Origin: an uncultured delta proteobacterium
GTDB taxonomy: Bacteria > Desulfobacterota > Desulfobaccia > Desulfobaccales > 0-14-0-80-60-11
Reading direction: 5' to 3'
Assembly (NCBI GenBank): GCA_963812015.1
Contig: CAWETI010000005.1
Span: forward strand, 1 to 34,080
Length of the DNA: 34,080 bases
Made by a program: the position numbers and the translations under genes
In this document: positions 12,843 to 28,554 of the stretch, piece after piece
How positions within the stretch are numbered: the first letter of the stretch is position 1
Layout of the letters: every line of letters starts with the position of its first letter
The notes under the pieces: generated by a model
Seen by the model: the letters and a program-made list of their open reading frames with translations, nothing else
Database searches by the model: none
What the model was told of the DNA's origin: nothing

Positions 12843-12938
12843 GCCGGGCGGGGTGACCCATGGCCACGGGCCGGGTTCGCACCCTTTAGCATATTCATCC
12901 ACCAGAAATACTATTTTCCTTTAACGGAGGGTAAGTTG

Positions 12939-14564
12939 ATGACCTGGTTGCAACATTACAACCCCTTGGGGAGCCTGGGCCTATCCGCCATCGTGGCGGC
13001 CATCCCGCTGTTCATCCTGCTGTATATGCTGGGGATTCGCCGTTCCAAAGGGCACTATGCGGCGTTCTTCGCCACCCTGGCGGCGGTGTTGCTGGCCATC
13101 ATCGTTTGGGGCATGCCGGTGGGCCACGCGGTTTCGGCGACGTTGTATGGGGCGGCCTTCGGCATCTTCCCCATCGTCTGGATCGTGGTCACGGCCATCT
13201 GGGTGTACAACATGACGGTGGAATGCGGCGACTTTGAAATCATTAAAAACTCCCTGGCCTGCGTCACCGATGACCGCCGCCTCCAGGCCCTGTTCATCGC
13301 CTTTGCCTTCGGGTCTTTCATCGAAGGCACCGCCGGGTTCGGCACCCCCGTGGCCATCACCGCGGCCATGCTGGTGGGGCTGGGGTTCAACGCCCGCTAT
13401 GCCGCCGGCGTCTGCCTCATCGCCAACACCGCCCCCGTGGCCTTTGGCGCCATCGGCATTCCCATCGTGGTGGCCGCGGGCGTCACCGGCCTGGACATGA
13501 TGCACATCAGCAAGATCGTCGGGCGGCAGTTGCCCTTCCTCTCCCTGATCGTGCCCCTGTGGCTGTCGGTGACCATGAGCGGCTGGAAGCGGTCCATGGA
13601 AGTTTTGCCCGCCATCATCGTGGCGGGTCTGTGTTTCGCGGTTTCCCAGTTCGTGGTTTCCAACTTCGTGGGCCCTTATCTGCCGGACATCATTTCGGCC
13701 GTGGTCACCATCATCGGCCTGGGAATTTTTCTGCGCCTCTGGAAACCCAAAGCGGTCTTTCACTTTGCCGATGAAAAGCCCACCGGGCCGGTGACCTGTC
13801 AGTTTTCGGCCGGCGAAGTGATCCGAGCCTGGGCGCCTTACGTCATCCTGGCCATCATGGTCTTTTTGTGGGGGCTGGAATCGGTGAAGGATGTTCTCAA
13901 GCCTTTCGGCACCAGTTTCTCCTGGCCCCTGCTCCACAACCTGGTGATCAAGACCGCGCCCATCGTCGCCAAGAATGCCCCCTACCCCGCAGTGTATATG
14001 GTCAACCTCGGCTCCGCCGCCGGCACCGCCATCTTCATCGCCGGCTTGCTCTCGGTCCTGATCATGCCCAAGTACGGCTTCGGCCGGGCCTTTGCCTGCC
14101 TGGGCCGGACCATCTACCTGCTGCGCTTCCCCATCCTCACCATCTCTTTGATTCTGGGCCTGGCCTTCATCATGAACTACTCCGGCATGAGCTCCACCTT
14201 GGGGCTGGCCTTTACCGCCGCCGGCGCCCTGTTCCCCTTCTTCTCGCCCTTTCTGGGTTGGGTGGGCGTTTTCCTCACCGGGTCGGACACCTCCTCCAAC
14301 GCCCTGTTCACCTCCCTGCAAAAGACCACGGCCCAGCAGATCGGGGTGGACCCCAACCTGATGGTGGCCGCCAACTCCAGCGGCGGCGTCACCGGCAAGA
14401 TGATCTCACCCCAATCCATCGCGGTGGCCTGCGCCGCCACCGGCCTGGTGGGCGAAGAAGGGGCCATCTTCCGCTGGACCCTCTTCCACAGCATGGGCAT
14501 GTGCACCATCATTGCCGTGCTTACCCTGCTCCAGGCCTACTGGCTCAAGTTCATGCTGCCGTAA
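12939..14564 (+). CDS. lldP: L-lactate permease
   Basis: Polytopic membrane protein; FIEGTAGFGTPVA, GVFLTGSDTSSNALF and GKMISPQSIAVA. Confidence 0.95.
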   Translation: MTWLQHYNPLGSLGLSAIVAAIPLFILLYMLGIRRSKGHYAAFFATLAAVLLAIIVWGMPVGHAVSATLYGAAFGIFPIVWIVVTAIWVYNMTVECGDFEIIKNSLACVTDDRRLQALFIAFAFGSFIEGTAGFGTPVAITAAMLVGLGFNARYAAGVCLIANTAPVAFGAIGIPIVVAAGVTGLDMMHISKIVGRQLPFLSLIVPLWLSVTMSGWKRSMEVLPAIIVAGLCFAVSQFVVSNFVGPYLPDIISAVVTIIGLGIFLRLWKPKAVFHFADEKPTGPVTCQFSAGEVIRAWAPYVILAIMVFLWGLESVKDVLKPFGTSFSWPLLHNLVIKTAPIVAKNAPYPAVYMVNLGSAAGTAIFIAGLLSVLIMPKYGFGRAFACLGRTIYLLRFPILTISLILGLAFIMNYSGMSSTLGLAFTAAGALFPFFSPFLGWVGVFLTGSDTSSNALFTSLQKTTAQQIGVDPNLMVAANSSGGVTGKMISPQSIAVACAATGLVGEEGAIFRWTLFHSMGMCTIIAVLTLLQAYWLKFMLP

Positions 14565-14574
14565 ACATGATATA

Positions 14575-14696
14575 TTGGGGAGGGGGCTAAGGGCTTTTTC
14601 GTAAGTGCCCTTACCCCCTCCCCAAACCCCACCCCCAATCCCCTACAGGGGTTCAAGGAAAGGGCCACAAAAAATTTCCCCGGCCTTTCCCTCAAA
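14575..14696. mobile_element. Short double-hairpin MITE-like repeat, copy 1
   Basis: Same architecture as 29659-29791: TTGGG..GGGGGC...CCCCCTC.CCAA, then CACCCCCAAyCCCyTACAGGGG, then a second hairpin ending CCCTCAAA. Confidence 0.6.
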
Positions 14697-14720
14697 AGCT
14701 TTTTCAAGAGGAGAACCACC

Positions 14721-15152
14721 ATGAACATCACCGTAACCCCCGGTCGCAAAATCATCGGCAGGCTGGCCAAGGGGGAGGACCTGTTGGCGGCCCTGGAGAA
14801 GGTCGCCCGGGAGCATGGCATCACTTTGGGAGAGGTGCAGGCCATCGGCGCGGTCAGCCAGGCCCGGGTGGGCTACTATAAACAGGCGGAGCGCAAATAT
14901 TACTTCCTCGACCTCACGCGTCCCCTGGAGATTTTGTGCCTTACCGGCAATATTTCCTTAAAGGACGGGAACCCCATGGTCCATGCCCACGTCACCTTGT
15001 CCGATGGCGACGGGCGGGCCTTCGGAGGCCATTTGGCCGAAGGCACCCTGGTCTTTGCCTGCGAATTCGCCATCCAGGAATACCAGTCGGCCACGGCGCT
15101 GGTGCGCCAGATGGATGACCCCACCGGCCTGTTCCTCTGGCCTTATAGGTAA
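14721..15152 (+). CDS. PPC/DUF296 domain protein
   Basis: RLAKGEDLL, AIGAVS, EILCLTGNIS, HAHVTLSD and FGGHL. Confidence 0.88.
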   Translation: MNITVTPGRKIIGRLAKGEDLLAALEKVAREHGITLGEVQAIGAVSQARVGYYKQAERKYYFLDLTRPLEILCLTGNISLKDGNPMVHAHVTLSDGDGRAFGGHLAEGTLVFACEFAIQEYQSATALVRQMDDPTGLFLWPYR

Positions 15153-15236
15153 GCGCGGCTCCGGGAATAAAAGAGTGATCTTAATTTTCCCTCCTTTCGA
15201 TGGGGGAGGGCCAGGGTGCATCAGGAGGAATGATCG

Positions 15237-16256
15237 ATGAACTTGGCGGAATTACGGGAAAACGCTAAAGAAAAACTTAAGGGTTATTGCCGGGTCTGTC
15301 CGATCTGCAACGGCCGGTCCTGTGCCGGCGAAGTGCCGGGCATGGGCGGCGTCGGTACGGGCAGCGCTTTTGCGGCCAATCTGGAAGCCTTGAGCCGGCA
15401 TCGTTTCAATATGCGGGCGATACATGATGTCAAGGCGCCGGATACCTCGTTCGAGCTCTGGGGAGAAAAGCTCTCCATGCCCATTCTGGCCGCGCCGTTG
15501 ACCGGGGTTACCTACAACATGGGCGGGCAAATCTCGGAAGAAAGTTTCATCCAGGAAATCATGGCAGGCTGCCGGCTGGCCGGCACCCTGGGCATGTGCG
15601 GCGATGGCGCCGATCCGGAAATGTATAATGGTGGCCTGAAAGCCGTGGCCGAGCATAACGGCAAGGGCATCCCGGTTGCCAAACCCCGGGAACAGGGGGA
15701 AGCTATCAAACGCCTCAAGGGGGCCGAAGCCGCCGGGGCCCTGGCCGTGGGCATGGATATAGACGGGGCCGGCCTCATTACCATGGCCCTCAAAGGCCAA
15801 CCCGTCGGTCCCAAAAGCTTTGAGGAGATCAAGGAACTGATTGGGGCGACGCGGCTGCCGGTTATCCTCAAGGGGGTCATGACCCCTGAGGAAGCGGACC
15901 TGGCCCTGGCCGCCGGGGCCGCGGCGATCGTGGTCTCCAACCATGGGGGGCGGGTCCTGGATCACACCCCCGGGGCGGCCGAGGTTCTGCCTGACATCGC
16001 GGCTCGAGTCCAGGGCAGATTGCTCATTTTGGCTGACGGCGGGGTGCGTTCCGGCAGCGATGTCCTCAAACTCCTGGCTTTAGGGGCCGACGCGGTTCTC
16101 GTCGGTCGCCCGCTGGTTATCGGGGTCATGGGCGGTGGCCGGGAAGGGGTGGCCTTTTTACTGAATAAATTGAAAAGCGAGCTTATCCAAGCGATGCTCT
16201 TGACCGGCGCTGCGGATGTCAAAACGGTGCCCCGGGCCATTCTCTTTGGCGGTTAA
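15237..16256 (+). CDS. FMN-dependent alpha-hydroxy-acid (L-lactate) dehydrogenase, with N-terminal Cys motif
   Basis: CRVCPICNGRSC, ILKGVMT, VVSNHGGRVLD, DGGVRSGSDV and LVGRP. Confidence 0.9.
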   Translation: MNLAELRENAKEKLKGYCRVCPICNGRSCAGEVPGMGGVGTGSAFAANLEALSRHRFNMRAIHDVKAPDTSFELWGEKLSMPILAAPLTGVTYNMGGQISEESFIQEIMAGCRLAGTLGMCGDGADPEMYNGGLKAVAEHNGKGIPVAKPREQGEAIKRLKGAEAAGALAVGMDIDGAGLITMALKGQPVGPKSFEEIKELIGATRLPVILKGVMTPEEADLALAAGAAAIVVSNHGGRVLDHTPGAAEVLPDIAARVQGRLLILADGGVRSGSDVLKLLALGADAVLVGRPLVIGVMGGGREGVAFLLNKLKSELIQAMLLTGAADVKTVPRAILFGG

Positions 16257-16419: not shown

Positions 16420-16782
16420 CTAGGGTAAGGACGTGCCACCGTTTAGCCGAACTGAGCCGGCACCCTCGCCCAAAATCACTTCCCGGACCAGGGGAGCCAC
16501 TTCCCGGCGCACCGCCTCGAGGCTGGCTTGACCCTCGGGGGTAATTTCATAGTATTTGCGCACCCGCCCCTTATAAACCCTGAGACGCGAGGCCAGCAAG
16601 CCCGCCTGCTCCAGCTGATGGAGGAGGGGATAGAGGCTGCCCGGGCTGATGCGGTAGCCTTTCTCCCCCAGGAATTTGCTCAGCCGGCCGCCATACACCG
16701 GCCCCTGGGAGGCCCGGTGCAGGACCACCAGCCGGGTCAGGCCCTGCCAGAACGATTGGCAAATCTGGTTTTTATCCGTCAC
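16420..16782 (-). CDS. PadR-family transcriptional regulator
   Basis: YG..L, ISPGSLYPLLHQLEQAGLL and RKYYEITPEG. Confidence 0.9.
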   Translation of the reverse strand: MTDKNQICQSFWQGLTRLVVLHRASQGPVYGGRLSKFLGEKGYRISPGSLYPLLHQLEQAGLLASRLRVYKGRVRKYYEITPEGQASLEAVRREVAPLVREVILGEGAGSVRLNGGTSLP

Positions 16783-16788
16783 AGATCG

Positions 16789-16806
16789 ATTATAGATATA
16801 TATCGG
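16789..16806 (-). promoter_or_regulatory. Palindromic box CCGATATATATC abutting the padR -10 element
   Basis: Minus strand CCGATATATATC-TATAAT-CGATCT-GTG; the same 12-mer occurs at 19302-19313. Confidence 0.55.
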
Positions 16807-16899
16807 TTAGCTAACCTATAGGCTGCGGTTGATTTTTCGTTATTTTTCACTTAGGTTACGGTTAGCATAAGGTTGTCATCGGGTTAAAGGAGGGATCCC

Positions 16900-17202
16900 A
16901 TGGCTCTGATGGATGATGGTTTGAAAGGCGCCGTGCCCAGCATCCTGGTGGTTTTGGGGGTGGCCATGGCCGCGCCCATAGTCCTGCCGGCGGTGGCGGC
17001 GGTGTCCCGTCCCCTGGCCAAGACTTTGATCAAGGGATATCTGGTGCTGGCCGATACCATTAAGGAGTTTGCCGCGGAAGCCGGGGAGCAGGTGGGTGAC
17101 CTGGTCGCGGAAGTCAAAGCCGAGCGGGCGGCTACGGTTGGCGCGACGGTGGCGGCTGCGGCGGCGGCTGCCAAGGGCACCAAGACCAAGGCATCCGGTT
17201 AA
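16900..17202 (+). CDS. DUF5132-like small membrane protein
   Basis: RBS AGGAGG; hydrophobic ILVVLGVAMAAPIVLPAVA followed by RPLAKTLIKG...EAGEQVGDLVAEVKAE. Confidence 0.75.
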   Translation: MALMDDGLKGAVPSILVVLGVAMAAPIVLPAVAAVSRPLAKTLIKGYLVLADTIKEFAAEAGEQVGDLVAEVKAERAATVGATVAAAAAAAKGTKTKASG

Positions 17203-17455
17203 GCCCCGGGAAGAGCACGCGCCCTGCCGGAGATTCAGGCGGGTTGGGCCAGGCCGTTCACCGGCAGTATCCGGTTAGGCGTGGCCCGGGTGAAGATGTG
17301 GGAGACGGAGGCTTATGTGCCCCGGTCCGGTGGACATCGGTTTGCCCGGAGACTGAGCCTTAGGGGATTGAAAAATCGCAAATATCATCTGACCAGCAAG
17401 AACCACCATGAAGCCAAGTGCTGGTCCATCATTCGCGAAGCGAGCCTGGCTGCCA

Positions 17456-17575
17456 TCAGGGGAACTCTTCGCAGTTTTCCCGCACCCCGCAATCCTGGCA
17501 CCGGGTCTGGCCCCACAGGATAGTCCCCAGACTCCCCAGAACTCCACCCCCCACAAAGAAGATTACATACCACAT
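17456..17575 (-). CDS. 39-aa membrane peptide with Cys-rich tail (below ORF-track cutoff)
   Basis: GAGGAGG RBS 6 nt before ATG; MWYVIFFVGGGVLGSLGTILWGQTRCQDCGVRENCEEFP*. Confidence 0.6.
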   Translation of the reverse strand: MWYVIFFVGGGVLGSLGTILWGQTRCQDCGVRENCEEFP

Positions 17576-17916
17576 ACCCGGCCTCCTCAGGTTACCCTTG
17601 CCGATCACCGCGCCTCAGGGCGCCGCCGTTAAGTCCAGCCCGTGAATCTTATTTTCCCTGCTTATATTTGTAAAAGGACAATATTACCGGTTAATGTCAA
17701 CTTGGTTAATATTTGGTTAATTTTAATCAATGCTGATTCTAACGGTCTCAGGCCCTAAATAATCCCTGAGGAAAATCACTTCCCTTAGCCGGGTGTTTGT
17801 GGCATACTCAAGGACATCAAGCCGGGTAATTTAACGGCGCGTTGTTATTAGACGCGAATCAAGCTTTGGGCTGGCTTTGGGGTTATCCGTAAATGATGAT
17901 TAGAGGATAAAAGCCT

Positions 17917-19218
17917 ATGAGAAAGACGTACATCTTAGATACCAATGTTTTGCTGCACGATCCCGATTCGTTGTTTTCTTTTGAAGATAATGCCATAGTG
18001 TTGCCGCTGTCGGTAGTTGAAGAGTTAGACCGTATTAAAAGAAGAAGTGACGAAGTTGGCAGGAATGCCCGGGAAGTATCCAGAAAATTGGACGAATTGC
18101 GGGTGAGAGGGCGGTTGTCGGAAGGAGTGGAACTGGCCAATGGCGGGTCGGTCCGTATTGAGATTAACGGTAATAAACCGGAGAATCAGCCATACGGCAT
18201 TGATTTAAATATCATTGACAACAGGATTCTGGCCCTGGCCTATGCGCACATGAATAATGGCCAGAGCCCGGTCATCCTGGTCACCAAAGATTTAAACCTG
18301 CGCATCAAGGCGGATGTCTTGGGGTTGGCCGCCGAAGATTTTTACAGCGATAAGGTGGATTATCATCAATTATACAGCGGCGTCAGAGAGTTGTACCTTG
18401 CCCCTGAAGCCATCGACCGGTTTTATCAAGAGGGGTCCCTGGAATATAACGACGGGGATCTGCACCCCCACCAGTTCTGCATCCTGAAACTGGGCGAATC
18501 GTCGTCAAAATCCGCCCTGGCCCGATATGGTCACCGCCGGCTCAATAAGCTGGCCCATGACGGCAAGGCGGTCTATGGCATCAAGGCGTTGAACAAGGAG
18601 CAGAAGTTCGCTCTGGATCTGCTCCTGGATGATGCTGTCCAGGTAGTGACCCTGGTGGGTAAGGCCGGCACCGGCAAGACCATCCTGGCCCTGGCGGCCG
18701 GGCTGGAAAAGGTCCTGGAAGGGGCCGGCAGATACAACCGTATCCTCATCACCCGGCCCATCGTGCCTTTGGGCAACGACATCGGCTACCTGCCCGGCGA
18801 CAAGGAAGATAAGATCAGGCCCTGGATGCAGCCCATTTACGACAACCTGGAATATCTGTGCAACGAACATATTCAACCCAACGGCTGCATCGATTATTTG
18901 ATCGCCAACGGCAAGATCGAACTGGAGGCTTTGACCTATATCCGGGGCCGGAGCATCCCGAAACAGTTTATCATCTGTGATGAGAGCCAAAATTTGAGCC
19001 CCCATGTGATCAAGACCATCCTCACCCGGGTGGGGCGGGGCAGCAAGATCATCTTCACCGGCGACCCGGAGCAGATCGACCATCCCTATCTGGACGCCTC
19101 CTCCAACGGCCTCAGTTACCTGGTGGAGAAAATCAAAGAGGAAGAAATATCCGGGCACATCACCCTGCTCAAGGGCGAGAGGTCCGGGATCGCCGAATTG
19201 GGCGCCAGGTTGCTGTAA
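17917..19218 (+). CDS. PIN-PhoH protein (PhoH2/YlaK type)
   Basis: PIN YILDTNVLLHDP...VVEELD...DNRIL...LVTKDLNLRIKA; PhoH GKAGTGKT, IGYLPG, YIRGRS, DESQN and TGDPEQID. Confidence 0.92.
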   Translation: MRKTYILDTNVLLHDPDSLFSFEDNAIVLPLSVVEELDRIKRRSDEVGRNAREVSRKLDELRVRGRLSEGVELANGGSVRIEINGNKPENQPYGIDLNIIDNRILALAYAHMNNGQSPVILVTKDLNLRIKADVLGLAAEDFYSDKVDYHQLYSGVRELYLAPEAIDRFYQEGSLEYNDGDLHPHQFCILKLGESSSKSALARYGHRRLNKLAHDGKAVYGIKALNKEQKFALDLLLDDAVQVVTLVGKAGTGKTILALAAGLEKVLEGAGRYNRILITRPIVPLGNDIGYLPGDKEDKIRPWMQPIYDNLEYLCNEHIQPNGCIDYLIANGKIELEALTYIRGRSIPKQFIICDESQNLSPHVIKTILTRVGRGSKIIFTGDPEQIDHPYLDASSNGLSYLVEKIKEEEISGHITLLKGERSGIAELGARLL

Positions 19219-19459
19219 GTGCGTCCCAGCGCGGCGCCCCGCCGTTGCCGCCCCTAAAGTGCGTCTGATTGCCCCGGCTATTCAGGGGCAGAGTATTCTT
19301 GCCGATATATATCGTAATCTTTTTATTGGGGTCCGGCCCAAAGTCGAGTATATATAGGGTAACGGCTCCAGAGGATAACTAGTAGTTTTCTATTAGGATT
19401 TGGTTAGCATCGGCTTTAAGGCGATTGCACGGGGCCCAAGGAGAACGCCGACTCTGGTC

Positions 19460-19747
19460 ATGGACGGATTCGAGGTAATGCATTCCCAGCCGGGGCAACT
19501 CAGCCTGGCCGTTGACAAACTCAAAGGCAACGATGACCTGGCCCGGGCCGTCCAGGCCGATTTGGGCGCCATCCGGGGTATCTACTCGGTGGAGGCCGAC
19601 CCTGCCCAGGGCCTGTTGGTGGTTGCCTACGATAAACAGCAGTTAATGTCTCTCATGTCGCTGCTCGCCTTGAAATCCGCCTTTGCCACTTTTTTCCCGG
19701 AAGTAAATGCCATGCAGCTGGCGGCCTGGCTCAGCCAGAGCCTATAA
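19460..19747 (+). CDS. Stand-alone HMA-like (HMA_2-type, no CxxC) domain protein
   Basis: VMHSQPGQLSL...LGAIRGIYSVEADPAQGLLVVAYD aligns by eye with the N-terminal domain of the downstream ATPase. Confidence 0.7.
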   Translation: MDGFEVMHSQPGQLSLAVDKLKGNDDLARAVQADLGAIRGIYSVEADPAQGLLVVAYDKQQLMSLMSLLALKSAFATFFPEVNAMQLAAWLSQSL

Positions 19748-19757
19748 AATGGACTAG

Positions 19758-19946
19758 GTCGTTTCGGGTTCGGGCGTTGAGAAAACTTGCCCCAAGGCCT
19801 TTCCCGGGGTGTTGGTCAGAATGTTTTGGCCCTTTGATGATCCGGCGGCGGCAGTTGGCTCGGAAGCGGAAAAGTTGGCAAAGTTCCGTGAAGTCAGGGA
19901 CCTGATAGAAGAACAAATCAAGTCGTGGTTAAGCAAAGTTACCTAA
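19758..19946 (+). pseudogene. arsC: C-terminal remnant of thioredoxin-coupled arsenate reductase
   Basis: Frame after TAG at 19755 reads ...EKTCPRPFPGVLVRMFWPFDDPAAAVGSEAEKLAKFREVRDLIEEQIKSWL*; the N-terminal CX5R loop is absent. Confidence 0.75.
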
Positions 19947-20041
19947 GCCATGACATTGCCTATTGTTATTGGGTGGCTATAATTAAAACATCTTAAGATT
20001 TACCGTTTGTATCCCGAGATCAGTCTCCGGAGGAAGGAATC

Positions 20042-20770
20042 ATGGCTGAAAAAGAACCGCGTGAAGCGAAAGGGATCGGCGACATGCTGGGCCAGGCCGG
20101 CACCACCGTGAAGGACGGCATCGTGGGCAGCCTCAAGGGGTTGCATGAGATCGAGGGCCAGATCGTCACCGTGGCGAGAGGCGCCGTTACCGACGCCCTG
20201 AAGACCACCGGCGCGGTGGCCACGGAAACCCTCAACGTGACCCGGGATGTTTTCCAGGGGGCGATTAAGGCCGCCGAGGAAGTGGGTTCCGGGCTCATCG
20301 TCAGCACCAAGAACGTGGCCAAGGGCATCATCCTGGGCGTCAGCGACGTGGGGGGGGATGTGGAGGCCGCGGCCAGCGAATTGGTCAAAGGCGCGGTCAA
20401 GGGCGCGGCGCAAATCGGCGGCGACGCCGCCCAGGTGGCCAAGAGTGCAGTCACCGGGGTCATCGAGGGCGCGACGGAGATCGGCGGCAACCTGGGCGGC
20501 ACCGCCAAGGCGGCCATCGGCGGCGCTTTAGAAGCCGCGGGCACCCTGGGCCAGAGCGCGGTCAAGAGCATCAGCGACATCCTGGTGGGGGCCGTGGAAG
20601 GGGTCAAGGAAGTGGCCTGCGCGGCCTGGCCGAAGTCCAAGGCCACTGCCGAGCCCCCGGATGAGACCAAGCCGGTTCCCGAGACTCATGCCGAGCAGAA
20701 AACCTCCCGGAGCAAAGGTGAGCCTGCGGCGGAAAAGCCCGGCAAAGGTGAGAAGTGGACACCGGCCTGA
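20042..20770 (+). CDS. Ala/Gly/Val-rich protein with about eight tandem 22-aa amphipathic repeats
   Basis: RBS GGAGG; e.g. VGSGLIVSTKNVAKGIILGVSD / VGGDVEAAASELVKGAVKGAAQ / IGGDAAQVAKSAVTGVIEGATE / IGGNLGGTAKAAIGGALEAAGT. Confidence 0.8.
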   Translation: MAEKEPREAKGIGDMLGQAGTTVKDGIVGSLKGLHEIEGQIVTVARGAVTDALKTTGAVATETLNVTRDVFQGAIKAAEEVGSGLIVSTKNVAKGIILGVSDVGGDVEAAASELVKGAVKGAAQIGGDAAQVAKSAVTGVIEGATEIGGNLGGTAKAAIGGALEAAGTLGQSAVKSISDILVGAVEGVKEVACAAWPKSKATAEPPDETKPVPETHAEQKTSRSKGEPAAEKPGKGEKWTPA

Positions 20771-20822
20771 AGAGCTGGTCAAAGTTATTCTTCATAGGTT
20801 GAGCCGAGGCTATTAAGACCAG

Positions 20823-23800
20823 ATGGTTCAGGCAATCCATACCGCGGTGGCGGGGCGGGTGAGGTTTAAGGTCGAGGGGCTCTACCGCTCCGAGGCCCTG
20901 AAGCGCACCCTGGAGGCCCATCTGGCGCGGCTCCAGGAGATTTCCCACGTCTCGGCCAACGCCCTGACGGGCAATGTCCTGGTATGCTTTAACTCGGGCA
21001 ACAATCCCCACACCATCGCCTCCCTGATCGAAGAAATCGTTGCAGACTTTCACCGCCATCTCCCCGACGTCGGACCGGAGGAGGCGCGGCCTGCTGCAGC
21101 CGGCCCCTCCCGGGCGGCCGCGGCGCCGCCTTCGCCCATCGCCAGATTAACGGCCCTGTTGTCTTGGACGGAGGCCCAGCCCGAGGGCCCCTGGCATCTT
21201 ATGGAGGCGGACGCGGTGTTGGCCACCCTGAAAACCTCCCAAACGGCAGGTCTGTCCCGCCAGGCGGTCAAGCGCAACAGCCAAAAATACGGCCCCAATG
21301 TCCTGCCCGAGGCCGAGCCCCGCTCCGGCTGGGAGATCTTTTCCCAGCAGTTCAAATCCCTGCCCGTGGCCCTGTTGGGGGCGGCCGCGGGCATTTCGGT
21401 GCTCACCGGGGGCGTCCTGGACGCGGTGCTGATCATGGGCGTGGTCACCATTAACGCCTTCATCGGCTACAAGACCGAAAGCGACGCCGAAAAGACCATC
21501 CGCTCCCTCCAAACCCTGGTCCGGCCCACGGCCCTGGTCATCCGGGCAGGCCGGATGCACGAAATCTCCGCGGCGGACCTCACTTTGGGGGATCTCCTGG
21601 TCCTGCGCCCGGGCAGCTATGTGGCGGCCGACTGCCGGCTGGTGGAGGCCACCCACCTGTCAGTGGATGAATCCGCCCTGACCGGGGAAAGCCTGCCCGT
21701 GGTCAAAACCACCGAGGCCTTGACCACGCCCAATATTCCCCTGGGGGACCGGCGCAACCTGGGTTTCATGGGGACCCTGGTGACCGGCGGGGAAGGGCTG
21801 GCCGTGGTGGTGGCCACGGGAAGTTATACGGAGATCGGCAAGATTCAAACCATGATGGGGGAAGCCACCACCCCGGAGACCCCGATGCAGCGCCAGTTGG
21901 GCCAGGTGGGCGATCAACTGGTGCTGGTGTGTTGCGGAGTATGCGGGGTGGTGTTCCTGGTGGGCTTTGCCCGGGGCCTGGGGCTCCTGGCGATGCTCAG
22001 GACCTCCATCTGCCTGGCGGCCGCGGCGGTGCCGGAAGGACTGCCCATGGTGGCCACCACCACCCTGTCCCTGGGCATCCGGGATATGCGGCGGCACAAG
22101 GTCTTGATCCGTCATCTGGACGCGGTGGAAACTTTGGGGTCCCTCCAGACCATCTGCCTGGACAAGACGGGCACTATCACCCGCAACGAGATGGTCGTCG
22201 TCGAGATCTTTACGGGCATGCGGTCCCTCCGGGTGGAGGGGGAGCGCTTTGTGGCGCCCGCCGGGTTGGTCTCTCCCTCCGCCTGTATGGAACTGCAACG
22301 GCTCCTGATGATGTCGGTGCTGTGCAACGAGACCGAAATTTACCGGGAAGGCGAGGCCTACCGGCTCCAGGGGACCCCCACGGAGGCGGCCCTGGTGCAC
22401 CTGGCCCTCAAGGTGGGCATCGATGTTTTCGCCTTGAGGCAGCAGTATCCGGTGCTGCGGATTAACTACCGCTCGGAAAACCGCCAGTTCATGGGCTCGC
22501 TCCACGATGAGCCGGCGGGGCGGAAGCTCGTGGCCATCAAGGGCAGTCCCCAGGAAGTCCTGGCCATGTGCACCGTGCACCTCAAGGATAACCAGGTGCT
22601 GCCCCTGACCGAGGCAGACCGGCAGGAAATCGAGGCCGAAAATGAACGTATGGCCGGGCAGGCCCAACGGGTCCTGGGAGTGGCCTACTCCGACCGGAAA
22701 GATCTGGTGAATGGCGAGCTGCCCAGCAGCCTGGTGTGGCTGGGCATCGTCGGCATGGCCGACCCCATCCGGGAGGGGGTGCGCGAGGCCATTGCCGCCT
22801 TCCACGGCGCCGGGATCGAGACCATTATGATTACCGGCGACCAAAGCGCCACGGCCTATGCCATCGGCAAGGAATTGAACCTCAGCCAGGCCGACCCGCT
22901 GGAAATCCTGGACTCCACCCACCTGGCCGATATTGATCCGGAAACCCTGCAAGCCCTGGCCAAGCGGGCCCACGTGTTCGCCCGGGTCAGCCCCGCCCAT
23001 AAGCTGCAGATTGTCCAGGTCCTCCAGCAGGCGGGCAAGGTGGTGGCCATGACCGGGGACGGGATCAATGACGGCCCCGCCCTCAAGGCCGCGGATGTGG
23101 GGATCGCCATGGGCAGCACGGGCACGGATATCGCCCGGGAGGTGGCCGACGTGGTGTTGGAAGAAGACAACCTGGACACCATGATCATCGCCATCCGGGA
23201 TGGACGCACCACCTATAATAACATTCGCAAATCCGTCCATTTTTTCCTGGCCACCAATTTGAGCGAGATCATGTTGACCTTCACGGCCCTGGCGGTGGGG
23301 CTGGGGGCTCCCCTGAACGCCATGCAGTTGTTGTGGATCAACCTGATCTCCGACATCTTCCCGGGATTGGCCCTGGCTATGGAGGCGCCGGAGCCGGATA
23401 TCATGACGCGCCCCCCCCGGGATCCCCAGCGGCCGATCTTTAACCGGTCCGACTTCAAGCGGATGAGCTTCGAGGGCGCGGCCATGACCGGCGGGGCCCT
23501 GGGGGCCTTCGGTTACGGGATCATGCGCTACGGCATGGGCGCCCGGGCCAGCACCCTGGCCTTCCACGGCCTCACGACCGGCCAGCTCCTCCACGCCCTC
23601 AGTTGCCGTTCGGAACAGCACAGTCTGCTGGGCCCCGGCAGCCTGCCCCCCAACCGCTACCTGACCCTGGCCCTGGGGGGCTCCCTGGCGGTACAGGCAT
23701 TAACCGCGGTGGTCCCCTGGTTCCGGACCATACTCGGTCTGACCCCCCTCGGCCTGGTGGATGCCCTGGTGGTGGCCGGCGCCGCGGTCCTGCCCCTTTT

Positions 23801-23858
23801 GGTGAATGAGGCCACCAAGCAGCCCCCCGCCGAGGCAGAGGAAGAAGAAATCTCGTGA
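20823..23858 (+). CDS. P2A-type (Ca2+-type) P-type ATPase with N-terminal HMA-like domain
   Basis: DESALTGES, VPEGLP, DKTGT, KGSP, MITGD, GDGINDGPAL, TNLSEI and QLLWINLISD; N-terminus HTAVAGRVRFKV...SANALTGNVLV. Confidence 0.93.
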   Translation: MVQAIHTAVAGRVRFKVEGLYRSEALKRTLEAHLARLQEISHVSANALTGNVLVCFNSGNNPHTIASLIEEIVADFHRHLPDVGPEEARPAAAGPSRAAAAPPSPIARLTALLSWTEAQPEGPWHLMEADAVLATLKTSQTAGLSRQAVKRNSQKYGPNVLPEAEPRSGWEIFSQQFKSLPVALLGAAAGISVLTGGVLDAVLIMGVVTINAFIGYKTESDAEKTIRSLQTLVRPTALVIRAGRMHEISAADLTLGDLLVLRPGSYVAADCRLVEATHLSVDESALTGESLPVVKTTEALTTPNIPLGDRRNLGFMGTLVTGGEGLAVVVATGSYTEIGKIQTMMGEATTPETPMQRQLGQVGDQLVLVCCGVCGVVFLVGFARGLGLLAMLRTSICLAAAAVPEGLPMVATTTLSLGIRDMRRHKVLIRHLDAVETLGSLQTICLDKTGTITRNEMVVVEIFTGMRSLRVEGERFVAPAGLVSPSACMELQRLLMMSVLCNETEIYREGEAYRLQGTPTEAALVHLALKVGIDVFALRQQYPVLRINYRSENRQFMGSLHDEPAGRKLVAIKGSPQEVLAMCTVHLKDNQVLPLTEADRQEIEAENERMAGQAQRVLGVAYSDRKDLVNGELPSSLVWLGIVGMADPIREGVREAIAAFHGAGIETIMITGDQSATAYAIGKELNLSQADPLEILDSTHLADIDPETLQALAKRAHVFARVSPAHKLQIVQVLQQAGKVVAMTGDGINDGPALKAADVGIAMGSTGTDIAREVADVVLEEDNLDTMIIAIRDGRTTYNNIRKSVHFFLATNLSEIMLTFTALAVGLGAPLNAMQLLWINLISDIFPGLALAMEAPEPDIMTRPPRDPQRPIFNRSDFKRMSFEGAAMTGGALGAFGYGIMRYGMGARASTLAFHGLTTGQLLHALSCRSEQHSLLGPGSLPPNRYLTLALGGSLAVQALTAVVPWFRTILGLTPLGLVDALVVAGAAVLPLLVNEATKQPPAEAEEEEIS

Positions 23859-23945
23859 GGCGTTGAAAAACGGTTAGTCACCCTGAGCATGCTTCCTTGG
23901 CCGGGAAGCCACCCCGCATGATGAAAAATTTACAGGATTTTCCTT

Positions 23946-25145
23946 ATGAGAAAAGACTTTGTGTTCAATTCCGAGTCCGTTACCGAGGGGCACCCGGATA
24001 AACTGTGTGATCAGATCAGCGATGCCATCGTGGACCACTTTCTGACCCAGGACCCCTTTGCCCGGGTGCGGGCCGAGTGCGCCATCTCCACCTCGATTCT
24101 GTTCATTGCCGCCCGGTTTGCCTCAGAAATCAAAGCGGATATCCCCAACCTGGCCCGCAAGGTAATCGGGCAGGTAGGCTATGTCCAGCCTGACTTTGAC
24201 GCCCGGACCTGCAGCATCTTGACCAGTCTCCAGGAGTATCCCTCCGACGCCGATCTCTTTTTCCATGAAAACCGGCTGTCGGAAGCCGAGATGGACCGGA
24301 TCCTCGTGCGACAGCAGGCCACGGTCTTCGGCTATGCCTGCCGGCAGACCGAGGTCTTGATGCCCCTGCCCATCTGGTTGGCCCATAAGCTGGCCCGCCA
24401 GTTGATCGCGGCCCGGCTCCAGCACCTGATTCCATACCTGTCCCCCGACGGCAAAACCCAGGTGGGCGTGGAATACCGGAACCGCAAACCCCGCCGGATC
24501 CACAGTATCACCATCATCGCCAGCCGCTCCAAATCCGCCGCGGCTAGCGTCAATATGAAGCAGCTCCATGACGATGTGATGGAAGCGGTGATCCGGCCAA
24601 CCTTTGTCGGCGAAGCCATCCGGCCGGATGACCAGACCATGATATTCATCAATCCGGTGGATAATCTCATGGTCGGGGGCCCGTCAGTGCATTCCGGTCT
24701 CACCGGCCGCAAAACCGACGTGGACCTGTACGGCGATTACGCCCGGCAGGGCGGCAATGCCCTCAGCGGCAAGGACCCCATGCGGATTGATCGGGTGGGA
24801 ACGTATGCGGCCCGCTATGCCGCCAAGAACCTGGTGGCCGCCGGCCTGGCGGAAGAATGTGAGGTGCAGCTCAGCTATTCCATCGGCCAGCCCCGGCCGG
24901 TGAGCATCATGGTGGAGACCTTCGGCACCGGCAAGCTCCCGGATGACGACCTGGCCCATTTGGTGGAGCAACACTTCGATTTTCGTCTGGCCGGCATCCT
25001 CAAGCGCTTTCAGCTCCGGCAGTTGCCGGCCCTCCACAAAGGCAAATTTTACCAGAAACTGGCGGCTTACGGACAGGTGGGGAGGGTGGACCTGAAGCTT
25101 CCCTGGGAAGAAACCGACAAAATCAGCCTGCTCCAAGAGCAATAA
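23946..25145 (+). CDS. metK: Methionine adenosyltransferase-like protein (divergent paralogue)
   Basis: SESVTEGHPDKLCDQISDAI, MPLPIWLAH, PDGKTQV, GLTGRK, SGKDP and AAYG; the GAGDQG motif is replaced. Confidence 0.85.
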   Translation: MRKDFVFNSESVTEGHPDKLCDQISDAIVDHFLTQDPFARVRAECAISTSILFIAARFASEIKADIPNLARKVIGQVGYVQPDFDARTCSILTSLQEYPSDADLFFHENRLSEAEMDRILVRQQATVFGYACRQTEVLMPLPIWLAHKLARQLIAARLQHLIPYLSPDGKTQVGVEYRNRKPRRIHSITIIASRSKSAAASVNMKQLHDDVMEAVIRPTFVGEAIRPDDQTMIFINPVDNLMVGGPSVHSGLTGRKTDVDLYGDYARQGGNALSGKDPMRIDRVGTYAARYAAKNLVAAGLAEECEVQLSYSIGQPRPVSIMVETFGTGKLPDDDLAHLVEQHFDFRLAGILKRFQLRQLPALHKGKFYQKLAAYGQVGRVDLKLPWEETDKISLLQEQ

Positions 25146-25264: not shown

Positions 25265-25611
25265 TGGTGGAGGCGGCGGGAGTCGAACCCGCGTCCGCCA
25301 ATAGTCCCTGGAAGCTTCTACATGCTTAGCCGGTGTTTTAGTTTCGCCCCCGAAGACTTCCACTGGCAGAATTCCCAGAGGCTATCCCGCTTGAGTTTTC
25401 GTCCGCCAACCCGCAGGCCTTATTGGCAGCTTTGCCAGGATGCCGTCATCTGGAGCCCTCTCCCGGCGTCGAGTTCCAGATGCTAGCCTTAAGCGGCTAG
25501 AGCGTAGCCGTAGTTGTCGGCAATTATGGTTTTCCTACCCGTTTAACGAGCGGACAGGACCTCGGCATGCAACTTACAGTTCTCCATTCACGTCGAAGCC
25601 GTTACGCCCCC
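25265..25611 (-). ncRNA. ssrA: tmRNA
   Basis: 5' GGGGGCGTAACGGCTTCGAC; 3' GGTTCGACTCCCGCCGCCTCCACCA; tag frame (A)ADNYGYALAA* at 25521-25489. Confidence 0.97.
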
Positions 25612-26693: not shown

Positions 26694-26749
26694 ATCCGGC
26701 GGCTGTGGGGTCTCAAAGCCTTTCAGGCGGCGCGGCGAGGGAGGAGCAA

Positions 26750-27547
26750 GTGGTCGGCAAACAGATTCGCATGGAACGCATTATGAACCGGGACACGGGG
26801 CGCACGGTGATCGTGCCCATGGATCACGGCGTCACGGTTGGCCCCATTGAAGGCCTGATCGACATGAAGACCACCGTCAACGCGGTGGCCAGCGGCGGGG
26901 CCAATGCCATTCTGATCCACAAGGGGCTGGTGTCCAGCGGCCATCGCCGCCGGGGCAAGGACGTGGGGTTGATCATTCACCTGTCGGCCTCCACCGCCCT
27001 GTCACCCTACCCCAATGCCAAGACCCTGGTATGCACCGTGGAGGAAGCCATAAAGTTGGGGGCGGACGCCCTCTCCATTCACGTCAACGTGGGGAACGGC
27101 TCCGATCAGGAGATGCTGGCCGACTTGGGCCGGGTGTCCCGGGAAGCCCGGGAATGGGGCATGCCGCTCTTGGCCATGATGTACCCCCGGGGCGAAAAGA
27201 TTAAGGATGAATATGATCCCCAGGCCATCAAGCACGTGGCCCGGTTGGGGGCGGAGCTGGGGGCGGACATCGTCAAGGTGTCATACACCGGTTCGGTGGA
27301 GTCATTCCGCCAGGTGGTGGCCGGCTGTCCGGTGCCGGTGGTCATTGCCGGCGGCGCCAAGATGAATTCGGACCGGGACATCCTGGAGATGGTGCAGGGA
27401 GCCATCGAGGCCGGGGGGGCCGGGGTGTCCATCGGGCGCAATGTCTTCCAACACCGGGACCCCAGCCGGATGGTGGGGGCGATGAGCATGCTGGTGAATG
27501 AAAACTCCGGGGTCGAAGAGGCCCTGTCCTTTCTCCAGGCCGTGTGA
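26750..27547 (+). CDS. 2-amino-3,7-dideoxy-D-threo-hept-6-ulosonate synthase (AroA', class I aldolase family)
   Basis: [28 protein letters not shown] and GRNVFQ; followed by DHQ synthase II. Confidence 0.88.
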
Positions 27548-27561
27548 GCCAGGACGCCGCC

Positions 27562-28554
27562 ATGAAAAAACTATGGGTCAAAATTGATCCCTGGGACAAA
27601 AAGCTCGTGACCACCGCCCTGGAGAGCGGGGTGGACGCGGTGTGGGTTCCCCCGGGCCGGAGCGGCGACGTTAAGGCCCTGGGGCTCATCACCGTGGTGG
27701 CCCCGGATGGCGATCTGGTGCCGGGCCAGGATGTCCATGAAGTCGCCATTCAAAGCACCGCCGACGAAGCCGAAGTCGTCCGTCTGGCCCGTGGCGGGCC
27801 GGTGGTGGTGCGCACTCCGGACTGGACCATCATTCCCCTGGAAAACCTGGTGGCCCAGAGCCGCAATATTTTCGTGGAAGTGGGCGAGGTGGACGAGGCC
27901 CGCACCGCCCTGGGCGTGCTGGAAAAGGGCGTGGACGGCCTGGTGGTCACCAATCCCACCCCGGCCCTGATCAAACAAATCGCCCGCCTGGTGAAAGAGG
28001 CCTCGCCGCCGGTGGAGTTGACCACGGCCCGCATCACCGGCTTGCGGCCCCTGGGCATGGGCGACCGGGTCTGCGTGGATACCTGCAGCAACCTGGGCCT
28101 GGGGGAAGGGATGCTGGTGGGCAACTCTTCCGGGGGCCTGTTTTTGGTGCATGCCGAATCCCTGGAAAACCCTTACGTCGCCCCCCGGCCCTTCCGGGTG
28201 AACGCCGGGCCCGTGCATGCCTACATCCGGGTCACCGGGGATAAGACCAGGTACCTGGGGGAACTGGCGGCCGGGGACGAAGTTCTCGTCGTCAATCACC
28301 AGGGGCGCACCACTGCCGCGGTGGTGGGCCGGGTCAAGGTGGAGCGCCGCCCCTTGATGCTGGTGAATGCTGAGGCCGGCGGCCGGGAGATTGCCACGAT
28401 TTTGCAAAACGCCGAGACGATCCGCCTCACCCGCGCCAGCGGCGAGGCCGTGTCCATCGTCACGCTCAAACCTGGGGATGAGGTGCTGGTGGCCCTGGAA
28501 GAGACGGGCCGCCACTTCGGCCACAAAATCCAGGAAACCATCCTGGAGAAATGA
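27562..28554 (+). CDS. 3-dehydroquinate synthase II (AroB')
   Basis: [32 protein letters not shown] and LQNAETIRL. Confidence 0.92.

Follow-up and report, generated by a model that had tools for sequence, protein, structure and literature searches.

The described systems closest to the locus considered here are ferrosomes, the PacL-Ctp efflux clusters and the ccyA neighbourhood. In the available text of the ferrosome preprint (10.1101/2020.01.10.902569), the pump FezB is defined by the motifs D[Y/F]SCA and HNxxT together with an N-terminal R-rich motif, and is accompanied by FezC and by small GxxxG proteins. PacL of mycobacteria, as presented in the available part of its description (PMC13460109), has one transmembrane (TM) segment and Glu/Ala repeats, and binds the Cys-less head of its pump in plasma-membrane effluxosomes. 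In Microcystis, DUF5132 and CoBaHMA genes flank ccyA, a marker of intracellular CaCO3, and are co-expressed with it, according to the accessible portion of that study (10.1101/2024.07.07.602159). The stretch analysed here (the window; 34,080 nucleotides, contig CAWETI010000005.1 of assembly GCA_963812015.1, from an uncultured delta proteobacterium of the Desulfobaccales) carries a cassette in which members of the DUF5132 and CoBaHMA (PF19991) families are encoded together with a P2A-type ATPase and a paralogue of MetK. This cassette is real and widely conserved, and its conserved core has the order DUF5132, CoBaHMA plus TM (FezC-like), an optional protein of 22-residue repeats, a P2A pump headed by a CoBaHMA domain, and the MetK paralogue. 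No published description of it was found in a literature search, although CoBaHMA-P2A fusions may already be catalogued by Gaschignard et al. (2024).

When species genomes were scanned with the MetK paralogue, 341 relatives were confirmed; the locus counts given here refer to the best 80 of these 341, of which 36 are cyanobacterial and the other 44 mostly Desulfobacterota-like and Nitrospirota, flanking genes being counted in the 30 non-cyanobacterial loci with at least 7 kb and the 32 cyanobacterial loci with at least 4.5 kb of upstream sequence. The pump gene lies directly upstream of the paralogue in 79/80 loci from Desulfobaccales, Nitrospirota and Cyanobacteria, and the sole exception has just 236 bases upstream. 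Non-cyanobacterial loci encode DUF5132 (30/30), the FezC-like protein (29/30, and located after DUF5132 in 29/30), the repeat protein (28/30) and a CoBaHMA pump head (30/30). The cyanobacterial pumps likewise have the CoBaHMA head (32/32); 18/32 of their loci contain a DUF5132-TM fusion and 0/32 the repeat gene. Second cyanobacterial copies again consist of a pump-paralogue pair (3/3), and Chlorogloeopsis fritschii PCC 6912 carries two such pairs. In 301 genomes sampled evenly from the phylum, so as to avoid selection by the query, the paralogue occurs in 27 and DUF5132 in 28, with an overlap of 26; paralogue and DUF5132 lie on one contig within ∼10 kb in 24 of these carriers, the other three being at contig breaks. 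Among the matches listed, 24 of the 25 phylum genomes with an HMA_2-headed open reading frame (ORF) of at least 1000 aa also hold the paralogue, 16 further matches standing outside that list, and in a separate sample of 301 cyanobacterial genomes the paralogue was found in 16. The initial annotation had treated these genes as one cluster, and neighbourhood analysis across three phyla bears out their co-occurrence in other genomes. Contigs of relatives in three wetland metatranscriptomes cover the cassette genes, although such contigs cannot show strand, level or co-transcription, and neither the paralogue nor the pump head was found among the plasmids of PLSDB.

The best PDB match of the pump is SPCA1 (E 2e-148), and its nearest solved proteins are SPCA1, LMCA1 and SERCA. 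Residues E405, N812, E815, N840 and D844 are invariant in 68/68 full-length relatives, position 843 is S or T, and Gln replaces Glu at the TM8 position in 66/68; by SERCA numbering, we take these ligands to form a nearly complete two-site Ca2+ pocket, with Mn2+ also possible. Such conservation of Ca2+ ligands upholds the earlier assignment of the pump to type P2A rather than P1B. None of the heads contains CxxC (0/68) and the R-rich motif at the N-terminus is present, with G11, R12 and R14 in 67/68 and H6 in 66/68. The head is predicted to adopt an HMA fold with an extra strand (residues 2-9) before the HMA core (pLDDT, the predicted score in the local distance difference test, 92), and the top matches in a fold search were HMA domains (Z 9.3, root-mean-square deviation, rmsd, 1.9 over 69); the head displays the features of CoBaHMA, namely the extra strand beta0, a conserved His, a basic patch and no CxxC. 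D[Y/F]SCA and HNxxT are absent from all six P-type ATPase ORFs of the genome, in which no P1B-6 pump was found. Because the pump has predicted Ca2+-type sites and the defining P1B-6 motifs are absent, the cassette is not a ferrosome, and the loading of Fe, which the initial annotation had entertained beside Ca and Mn, is unlikely. The same genome encodes a second, ordinary P2A pump without a head domain.

The MetK paralogue was compared, across 81 sequences, with the housekeeping MetK of the genome and three solved methionine adenosyltransferases (MATs). Equivalents of H14, D16, K17, E42, D163, K165, R244, K245, K265 and D271 are invariant (81/81); we take these ten positions to be the triphosphate, Mg and K residues, and phosphate chemistry is probably retained. 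The amino-acid pocket is remodelled, as befits the earlier description of the protein as a divergent MetK: E55 has become R and D238 H in 81/81, D118 is N or Q in 78/81, Q98 and R229 are not kept, and F230 is kept in 54/81, with Leu in the window. For the E. coli enzyme, the available text names E55, Q98, R229, F230 and D238 as contacts of S-adenosylmethionine (SAM; PMC8727953). K269 is replaced by R in 81/81, a count that may be biased since one search pattern covered the site, and R57, H249 and R280 are invariant (81/81). Because the acid-to-base exchanges are invariant, a selected new ligand, probably anionic, is indicated rather than decay.

The DUF5132 protein consists of one hydrophobic membrane segment (KD19 2.56) and a Glu/Ala-rich helix, and Gxxx[G/A/S] occurs in 31/32 members. 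Its relation to fez clusters was examined using 20 HMA_2-bearing regions of the phylum sample, in which fez-type loci were recognised by motif and not by named Fez sequences. A profile of 33 DUF5132 proteins searched against 3,392 ORFs matched the small protein beside fez-type pumps in seven loci (L119, L123, L124, L130-L133; E 1e-4 to 1e-2), the pumps there being of the D[YF]xCA/HNxxT type (P1B-6). Against 54,162 ORFs of its own genome the same profile gave four matches, all cassette-related: the gene in the window, two additional paralogues of DUF5132, and a fragment located next to the satellite CoBaHMA gene. Pfam assigns the fez-side small proteins to DUF6110 or, weakly, to DUF5132, and places the heads of the fez-type pumps in HMA_2 (L124, L130). 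Alignment of DUF5132 with the fez-side small proteins by hhalign gave a probability of 92.7% (E 4e-7 over 48 columns), which is a confirmation and not an independent test because the seven templates came from the profile matches. The homology of the small proteins and HMA domains to fez components, initially suggested from the letters of the window, is supported by these matches, the R-rich N-terminus of FezB being the same HMA_2/CoBaHMA domain. As DUF5132 and HMA_2/CoBaHMA families occur in both fez clusters and the ccyA neighbourhood, the kit appears from its sequences to be common to the two, and it resembles PacL-Ctp efflux clusters in build; mineral inclusions are built by both of the neighbourhoods known to contain these Pfam families. 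By analogy, the cassette would work like a scaffolded pump of fez or PacL type while not being a ferrosome by the defining test. DUF1490 was listed among the Pfam matches of none of the 32 DUF5132 members, with the qualification that HMMER filters drop weak matches. Prediction of a complex between the pump head and DUF5132 residues 1-82 scored 0.10 against a mark of 0.32, which gives no verdict and is used neither way. Large fez-type clusters with two P1B pumps were also seen in the phylum sample (L119, L123, L132, L133).

Regulatory sequences of two kinds accompany the cassette. PadR is the probable repressor, judging from sequence; a 12-bp palindrome, its probable operator, stands at both operon promoters in the window and recurs at the two matching positions in most relatives that have PadR. 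Pho-box-like repeats were scored with a rough matrix of regex-picked half-sites (28 half-sites from six pstS promoters; L052, L034 and L060 left out, L048 giving none), for which scores on pstS are circular and significance was taken against dinucleotide shuffles; when pstS promoters were searched for 18-mer motifs without supervision, the outcome was mixed. The boxes are sense to pstS. Upstream of DUF5132 they are antisense, being stronger on that strand in 24/28 loci, significant there in 15/28 and sense-significant in 0/28. Where a divergent CoBaHMA gene lies upstream of the cassette, sense boxes before it are significant in 17/21 cases (at -94 to -102 in Desulfobaccales-like loci), as against 0/15 for downstream copies and 4/39 for control genes; several Nitrospirota loci have pstS on the divergent strand. 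Palindromes and boxes have a fixed geometry, and the boxes point away from the pump operon, towards the divergent CoBaHMA gene and, probably, padR. PhoB boxes normally activate in one direction, and so starvation should induce the divergent genes and silence the pump operon via PadR or occlusion. This control logic fits a store that is filled in plenty and tapped in famine, and equally fits Ca export at high phosphate. One box of the window, ∼146 bases upstream of a 39-aa peptide gene on the minus strand, ranks 18th of 34 genome-wide sites above score 11. Scans for sigma-70 promoters and terminators gave chance-level results, and a literature search found no paper on box orientation. A conserved AGA(T/A)ATA(T/A)ATCGCTG site near -3800 was noted in several cyanobacterial loci (L035-L083).

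The initial annotation had also tied the locus to phosphate through its PIN-PhoH gene. The link to phosphate survives through the Pho-box-like sites and fails for PhoH, which is modelled as an RNA helicase of the PIN-PhoH2 type and is a local, lineage-specific insertion rather than part of the core, since it lies inside the cassette in only 5/80 loci (downstream in 3). Neither PPK1, PPK2 (polyphosphate kinases, PPK) nor Pit was detected in the genome, in which one H+-pyrophosphatase (H+-PPase) was found. PPK1 is absent from 26/27 carriers of the phylum sample and PPK2 from 25/26 carriers besides this genome, and such hosts would therefore need another way to bank phosphate. PPK1 is itself rare in the phylum sample (27/301), and mutual exclusion between cassette and kinase was rejected (PPK1 in 1/27 carriers vs 26/274 others; Fisher p 0.49). 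Given the rarity of PPK among carriers and phylum alike, phosphate stored in these hosts is probably not PPK-made polyphosphate. The carrier C. fritschii PCC 6912 has Ca- and P-rich inclusions and no CaCO3, in the available account (PMC8890360), an observation compatible with a role of the cassette and not probative.

The repeat protein belongs to a family without a name. Its autocorrelation peaks at lag 22 (1.09) and 44, a value reached by 0/1000 shuffles, and the AlphaFold2 model is an alpha-solenoid of modest confidence (pLDDT 65) whose fold search matched nothing but designed helical repeats (highest Z 17.0, rmsd 3.0 over 181). Weak, below-cut-off Pfam matches were to Senescence (14/33), Phasin_2 (4) and Apolipoprotein (1), an Atlas search gave clusters without names, and the tail is AT-hook-like in only 12/33 members. 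Among 70 homologues, seven are fused to a DNA-binding MucR domain (ROS/MucR; P0002-P0005, P0008, P0012, P0031) and three to a receiver domain (P0064, P0067, P0069). The model would allow a coat, a tether or a soluble scaffold; the role of coat first proposed is unproven, given the modest model, the absence from 32/32 cyanobacterial loci and the MucR fusions.

The window corresponds to contig C5 in a genome of 3.96 Mb (completeness 99.86%, contamination 5.72%). It overlaps the start of C3 and of C4 at >99.5% identity, from which it follows that a second MetK/ATPase match on C3 is assembly overlap and that the window is chromosomal; contigs from a source-like DNA run cover most of it with 0 differences. 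The closest cassette loci are in Desulfobaccales-type metagenome-assembled genomes. All of the genes initially listed are present by profile matches and ORF checks (Table 1), in a block that is not a single operon, PadR and the 39-aa peptide being on the minus strand and the remaining genes on the plus strand. The kit is dispersed here, its parts lying at several loci of the genome. A FezC-like gene is found at C2:1034395 beside a second DUF5132 gene (C2:1034112), and the free CoBaHMA gene that relatives carry divergently lies at C3:2119663, where it still has a Pho-like box at -86. The 39-aa peptide, whose MWY..GxxxG..CxxC pattern is kept in four relatives, is a leftover of the divergent unit that holds the free CoBaHMA gene in relatives. 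An MntP/YtaF-like look-alike at C3:819727 lies beside a PhoB-like response regulator, with the cassette palindrome and GGTTA repeats upstream; this unit (G000:C3:818923-820670) is probably a part of the regulon that became detached. Beside lepA stands, on its own, a further DUF5132-like gene, the third and a divergent one (G000:C2:400567-400911; L137 5568-5912).

Table 1. Features of the cassette region, in window coordinates.
Feature	Position	Strand	Remarks
PadR-family regulator	16420..16782	-	PF03551 E 1e-17; divergent from DUF5132 in 12/80 loci
12-bp palindrome, probable PadR operator 1	16794..16805		2 matches in window vs 0.00 expected
Pho-box-like GGTT(A/G) repeats of 11-bp period, towards padR	16860..16887	-	p 0.12-0.15 in the window
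DUF5132, FezA/PacL-like scaffold candidate	16900..17202	+	PF17195 E 1e-9
39-aa hydrophobic peptide, GxxxG and CxxC	17456..17575	-	tblastn matches in L005, L007, L010, L011, E<=4e-4
Pho-box-like tandem repeat towards the 39-aa peptide, not phoH	17704..17721	-	score 12.5, p 0.01
PIN-PhoH (PhoH2-like RNase/helicase)	17917..19218	+	top-scoring model is RNA helicase PhoH2, at a score under its cut-off
Perfect palindrome, probable PadR operator 2	19303..19314		same motif search as operator 1
Stand-alone Cys-less HMA_2 (CoBaHMA-like)	19460..19747	+	PF19991 E 9e-9; likely ATG start, TTG ORF from 19400
arsC/LMW-phosphatase 3' remnant (pseudogene)	19779..19946	+	87% to residues 87-141 of the intact ArsC of L005
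Eight 22-residue amphipathic helices and Pro/Lys-rich tail, family without name	20042..20770	+	predicted alpha-solenoid
P2A (SPCA/LMCA/SERCA-like) ATPase with N-terminal CoBaHMA domain	20823..23858	+	GRVRFK, PEGLP, NLSE, WINLISD
MetK paralogue	23946..25145	+	40.5% identity to the housekeeping MetK at C2:246597

The stand-alone HMA protein is without the basic motif: it reads PGQLSL here, the motif is likewise lost in the 11 listed relatives, PG(Q/F/Y/H/E) replaces GR in relatives, and the His/Arg signature of CoBaHMA is missing. The arsC remnant sits between this gene and the repeat gene. A tmRNA gene (tag ADNYGYALAA; 25265-25611, minus strand) follows the MetK paralogue at a distance of 120 bases; the idea of an island there was rejected, since neither an att duplication nor, in the loci of relatives, any tmRNA was found. 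The genes on either side of the cassette in the window are ordinary, with a lactate permease, a PCC-domain protein and an FMN dehydrogenase upstream (12936-16256) and a DeoC-family aldolase and dehydroquinate synthase II (archaeal-type shikimate entry) downstream (26705-28554). In other loci, recurring neighbours include small Cys-rich proteins without a Pfam family, DUF3562, CorA, ArsC-like and pstSCA genes (Nitrospirota-type, L018-L080), two divergently transcribed genes ∼4-6 kb upstream of the paralogue, for a pyridoxamine-oxidase-like stress protein (20 loci) and for ChaB (11 loci; both cyanobacterial, L035-L083), and, 7.5-10 kb upstream and beyond padR in ∼8 Desulfobaccales-type loci (L007-L017), a PF13578 methyltransferase and a phosphatidylserine-decarboxylase-like gene.

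It is possible, with the chances put somewhat short of even, that the cassette encodes a phosphate-gated, ferrosome-like scaffolded pump, which by analogy would load Ca phosphate (possibly Mn or Mg phosphate) into membrane bodies when phosphate is plentiful and be switched off at starvation. DUF5132 and the FezC-like protein would gather the pump into clusters by way of its basic CoBaHMA head, curving the membrane into small vesicles, which the pump would fill with Ca2+ that precipitates with orthophosphate (Pi) or pyrophosphate (PPi). The MetK paralogue, no longer making SAM, would bind or cleave ATP or tripolyphosphate (PPPi) at the pump, as supply or sensor of the phosphate counter-ion, and the solenoid would be an optional surface scaffold or tether. 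On phosphate scarcity, PhoB would induce the divergent PadR and the free CoBaHMA protein; PadR would close both operon promoters, and free CoBaHMA could compete for the scaffold and help to unload the store. A bolder version, which is unlikely, makes the cassette a third class of encoded mineral organelle, a PPK-independent Ca-phosphate or pyrophosphate store that combines the ferrosome kit with a SERCA-like pump, a MetK splitting ATP to PPPi, PPi and Pi, a solenoid coat or tether, and a PhoB-driven flip from loading to unloading via PadR and a CoBaHMA decoy.

Several observations weigh against such a store. The membrane-bounded compartment proposed in the initial annotation would follow by analogy from the genes, and the same architecture, a TM plus Glu/Ala scaffold with a Cys-less pump head, also makes plasma-membrane effluxosomes in the available description of PacL/Ctp (PMC13460109). 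As 14/32 cyanobacterial loci have neither DUF5132 nor FezC-like genes nearby and none has the repeat protein, the invariant core is the pump and MetK paralogue only. In the window itself the FezC-like gene is absent, a search finding no remnant of it at 17191-17916; DUF5132 has GxxxA, strict GxxxG occurring in just 15/32 members; and the box between padR and DUF5132 is not significant. The boxes are presumed to be PhoB sites whose orientation sets activation. MntP-like genes near the cassette in 10 loci (immediately behind the paralogue in 7, nearby in 3 more) and CorA in 8 fit plain cation homeostasis, and what PCC 6912 holds in its Ca-P inclusions may be ordinary polyphosphate made by PPK. 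Related genomes are, moreover, not independent, and some sampled genomes may duplicate fetched loci.

A close rival is effluxosome-like export, with chances put only a little lower than those of the store: DUF5132 would be a PacL-type chaperone that clusters and stabilises a Ca2+/Mn2+ exporter in the plasma or thylakoid membrane, with no compartment, and cytosolic Ca would be kept low at high phosphate so that Ca-phosphate does not precipitate. LMCA1, an exporter, is a Ca2+ pump and the closest characterised bacterial structure, the MntP-like and CorA neighbours agree with export, and the regulatory geometry fits it equally well. DUF5132 does look like PacL, with one TM and Glu/Ala, as far as the available text describes the latter (PMC13460109), but no DUF5132 member lists DUF1490, whereas the fez-side proteins do match DUF5132. 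The genome has a second, headless P2A pump, the idea of exporting Ca imported by Pit is weakened by the failure to find a Pit transporter in the genome, and export would not need all of the extra parts: the FezC-like protein, the solenoid, the enzyme and the free CoBaHMA protein predicted to be induced at starvation. It is improbable, if arguable, that the pump and its MetK-fold partner are the functional unit, the paralogue acting as a ligand-sensing or ATP/PPPi-hydrolysing regulator or making an adenosyl or phosphate product from an anionic substrate, with accessory small proteins and no mineral. Theirs is the only invariant link (loci, second copies and listed phylum genomes alike), and the invariant R57, H249 and R280 suit such a role; yet in genome G080 the paralogue is missing although DUF5132, the FezC-like gene and the pump are there, and the fez-like membrane kit would be left unexplained.

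Other minerals fare worse than Ca phosphate. It is quite improbable that the cassette makes intracellular amorphous CaCO3 (iACC), whether alongside calcyanin or in its place: DUF5132 and CoBaHMA genes neighbour ccyA and are co-expressed with it (available text of 10.1101/2024.07.07.602159), and magnetotactic Nitrospirota form Ca-carbonate granules (available text of PMC12710302), but no long Gly-zipper protein was found in the 80 loci or the genome by a simple (Gxxx)7 pattern, the cassette-bearing PCC 6912 has, in the available account (PMC8890360), no iACC, bicarbonate transporter and carbonic anhydrase are not among the recurring neighbour families examined, and the control sites look phosphate-type. 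A true ferrosome, an iron-phosphate organelle with the P2A pump serving Fe2+, is highly improbable. It would account for the shared FezA-like and FezC-like families in a genome without a P1B-6 pump, but the pump present has predicted oxygen-donor Ca2+ sites in place of D[YF]SCA and HNxxT, and FeoA/FeoB, Fur and ferritin-like genes are not among the recurring neighbour families listed or the 20 scanned. If the storage of Ca phosphate is correct, the ferrosome kit would be a modular chassis with the pump deciding its cargo, and a dedicated, regulated Ca-phosphate store would exist in bacteria, with a bearing on sediment phosphorus cycling and on the unexplained Ca-P inclusions of filamentous cyanobacteria. 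Even under efflux, DUF5132 and CoBaHMA would gain a function, and a large set of proteins passing the 'methionine adenosyltransferase' model would be flagged as probably doing something else. The cassette is directly testable because cultured carriers exist, namely C. fritschii PCC 6912 together with Fischerella thermalis PCC 7521.

Among characterised proteins, the pump shares with SPCA1, LMCA1 and SERCA the PEGL, TM5 N/E and TM6 N/(S,T)/D ligands, DKTGT, TGES and TGDGIND, and differs from them in its N-terminal CoBaHMA domain, its TM8 Gln and scores below the NCBIfam PMR1/SERCA equivalog cut-offs. The paralogue has all three Pfam domains of MetK and passes the TIGR01034 cut-off, but its methionine-contacting acids are charge-reversed and it is carried in addition to a normal metK. 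With fez clusters, as far as the available text of Grant and Komeili describes them (10.1101/2020.01.10.902569), the cassette has in common an R-rich, Cys-less, HMA_2-headed P-type ATPase, a small single-TM DUF5132 homologue, a FezC-like HMA plus TM protein (in this genome encoded at another locus), soluble R-rich proteins, and mostly anaerobic or filamentous hosts; unlike them it has a P2A pump with predicted Ca2+ ligands, an obligatory remodelled MetK, a 22-mer solenoid and PadR/Pho-type rather than iron control, and any organelle of its own is hypothetical. It resembles the PacL-Ctp clusters, in the available part of their description (PMC13460109), in encoding a small TM plus Glu/Ala-rich protein beside a P-type ATPase whose head is without CxxC, and departs from them in having DUF5132 and not DUF1490, a P2A and not a P1B pump, and extra CoBaHMA proteins, an enzyme and a repeat protein. 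With the ccyA (calcyanin) locus, judged from the accessible portions of two reports (10.1101/2024.07.07.602159; PMC8890360), it shares DUF5132 and CoBaHMA genes beside a Ca2+ transporter, from which it is set apart by a P2A ATPase in place of a CAX antiporter, by the MetK paralogue and by calcyanin not having been found.

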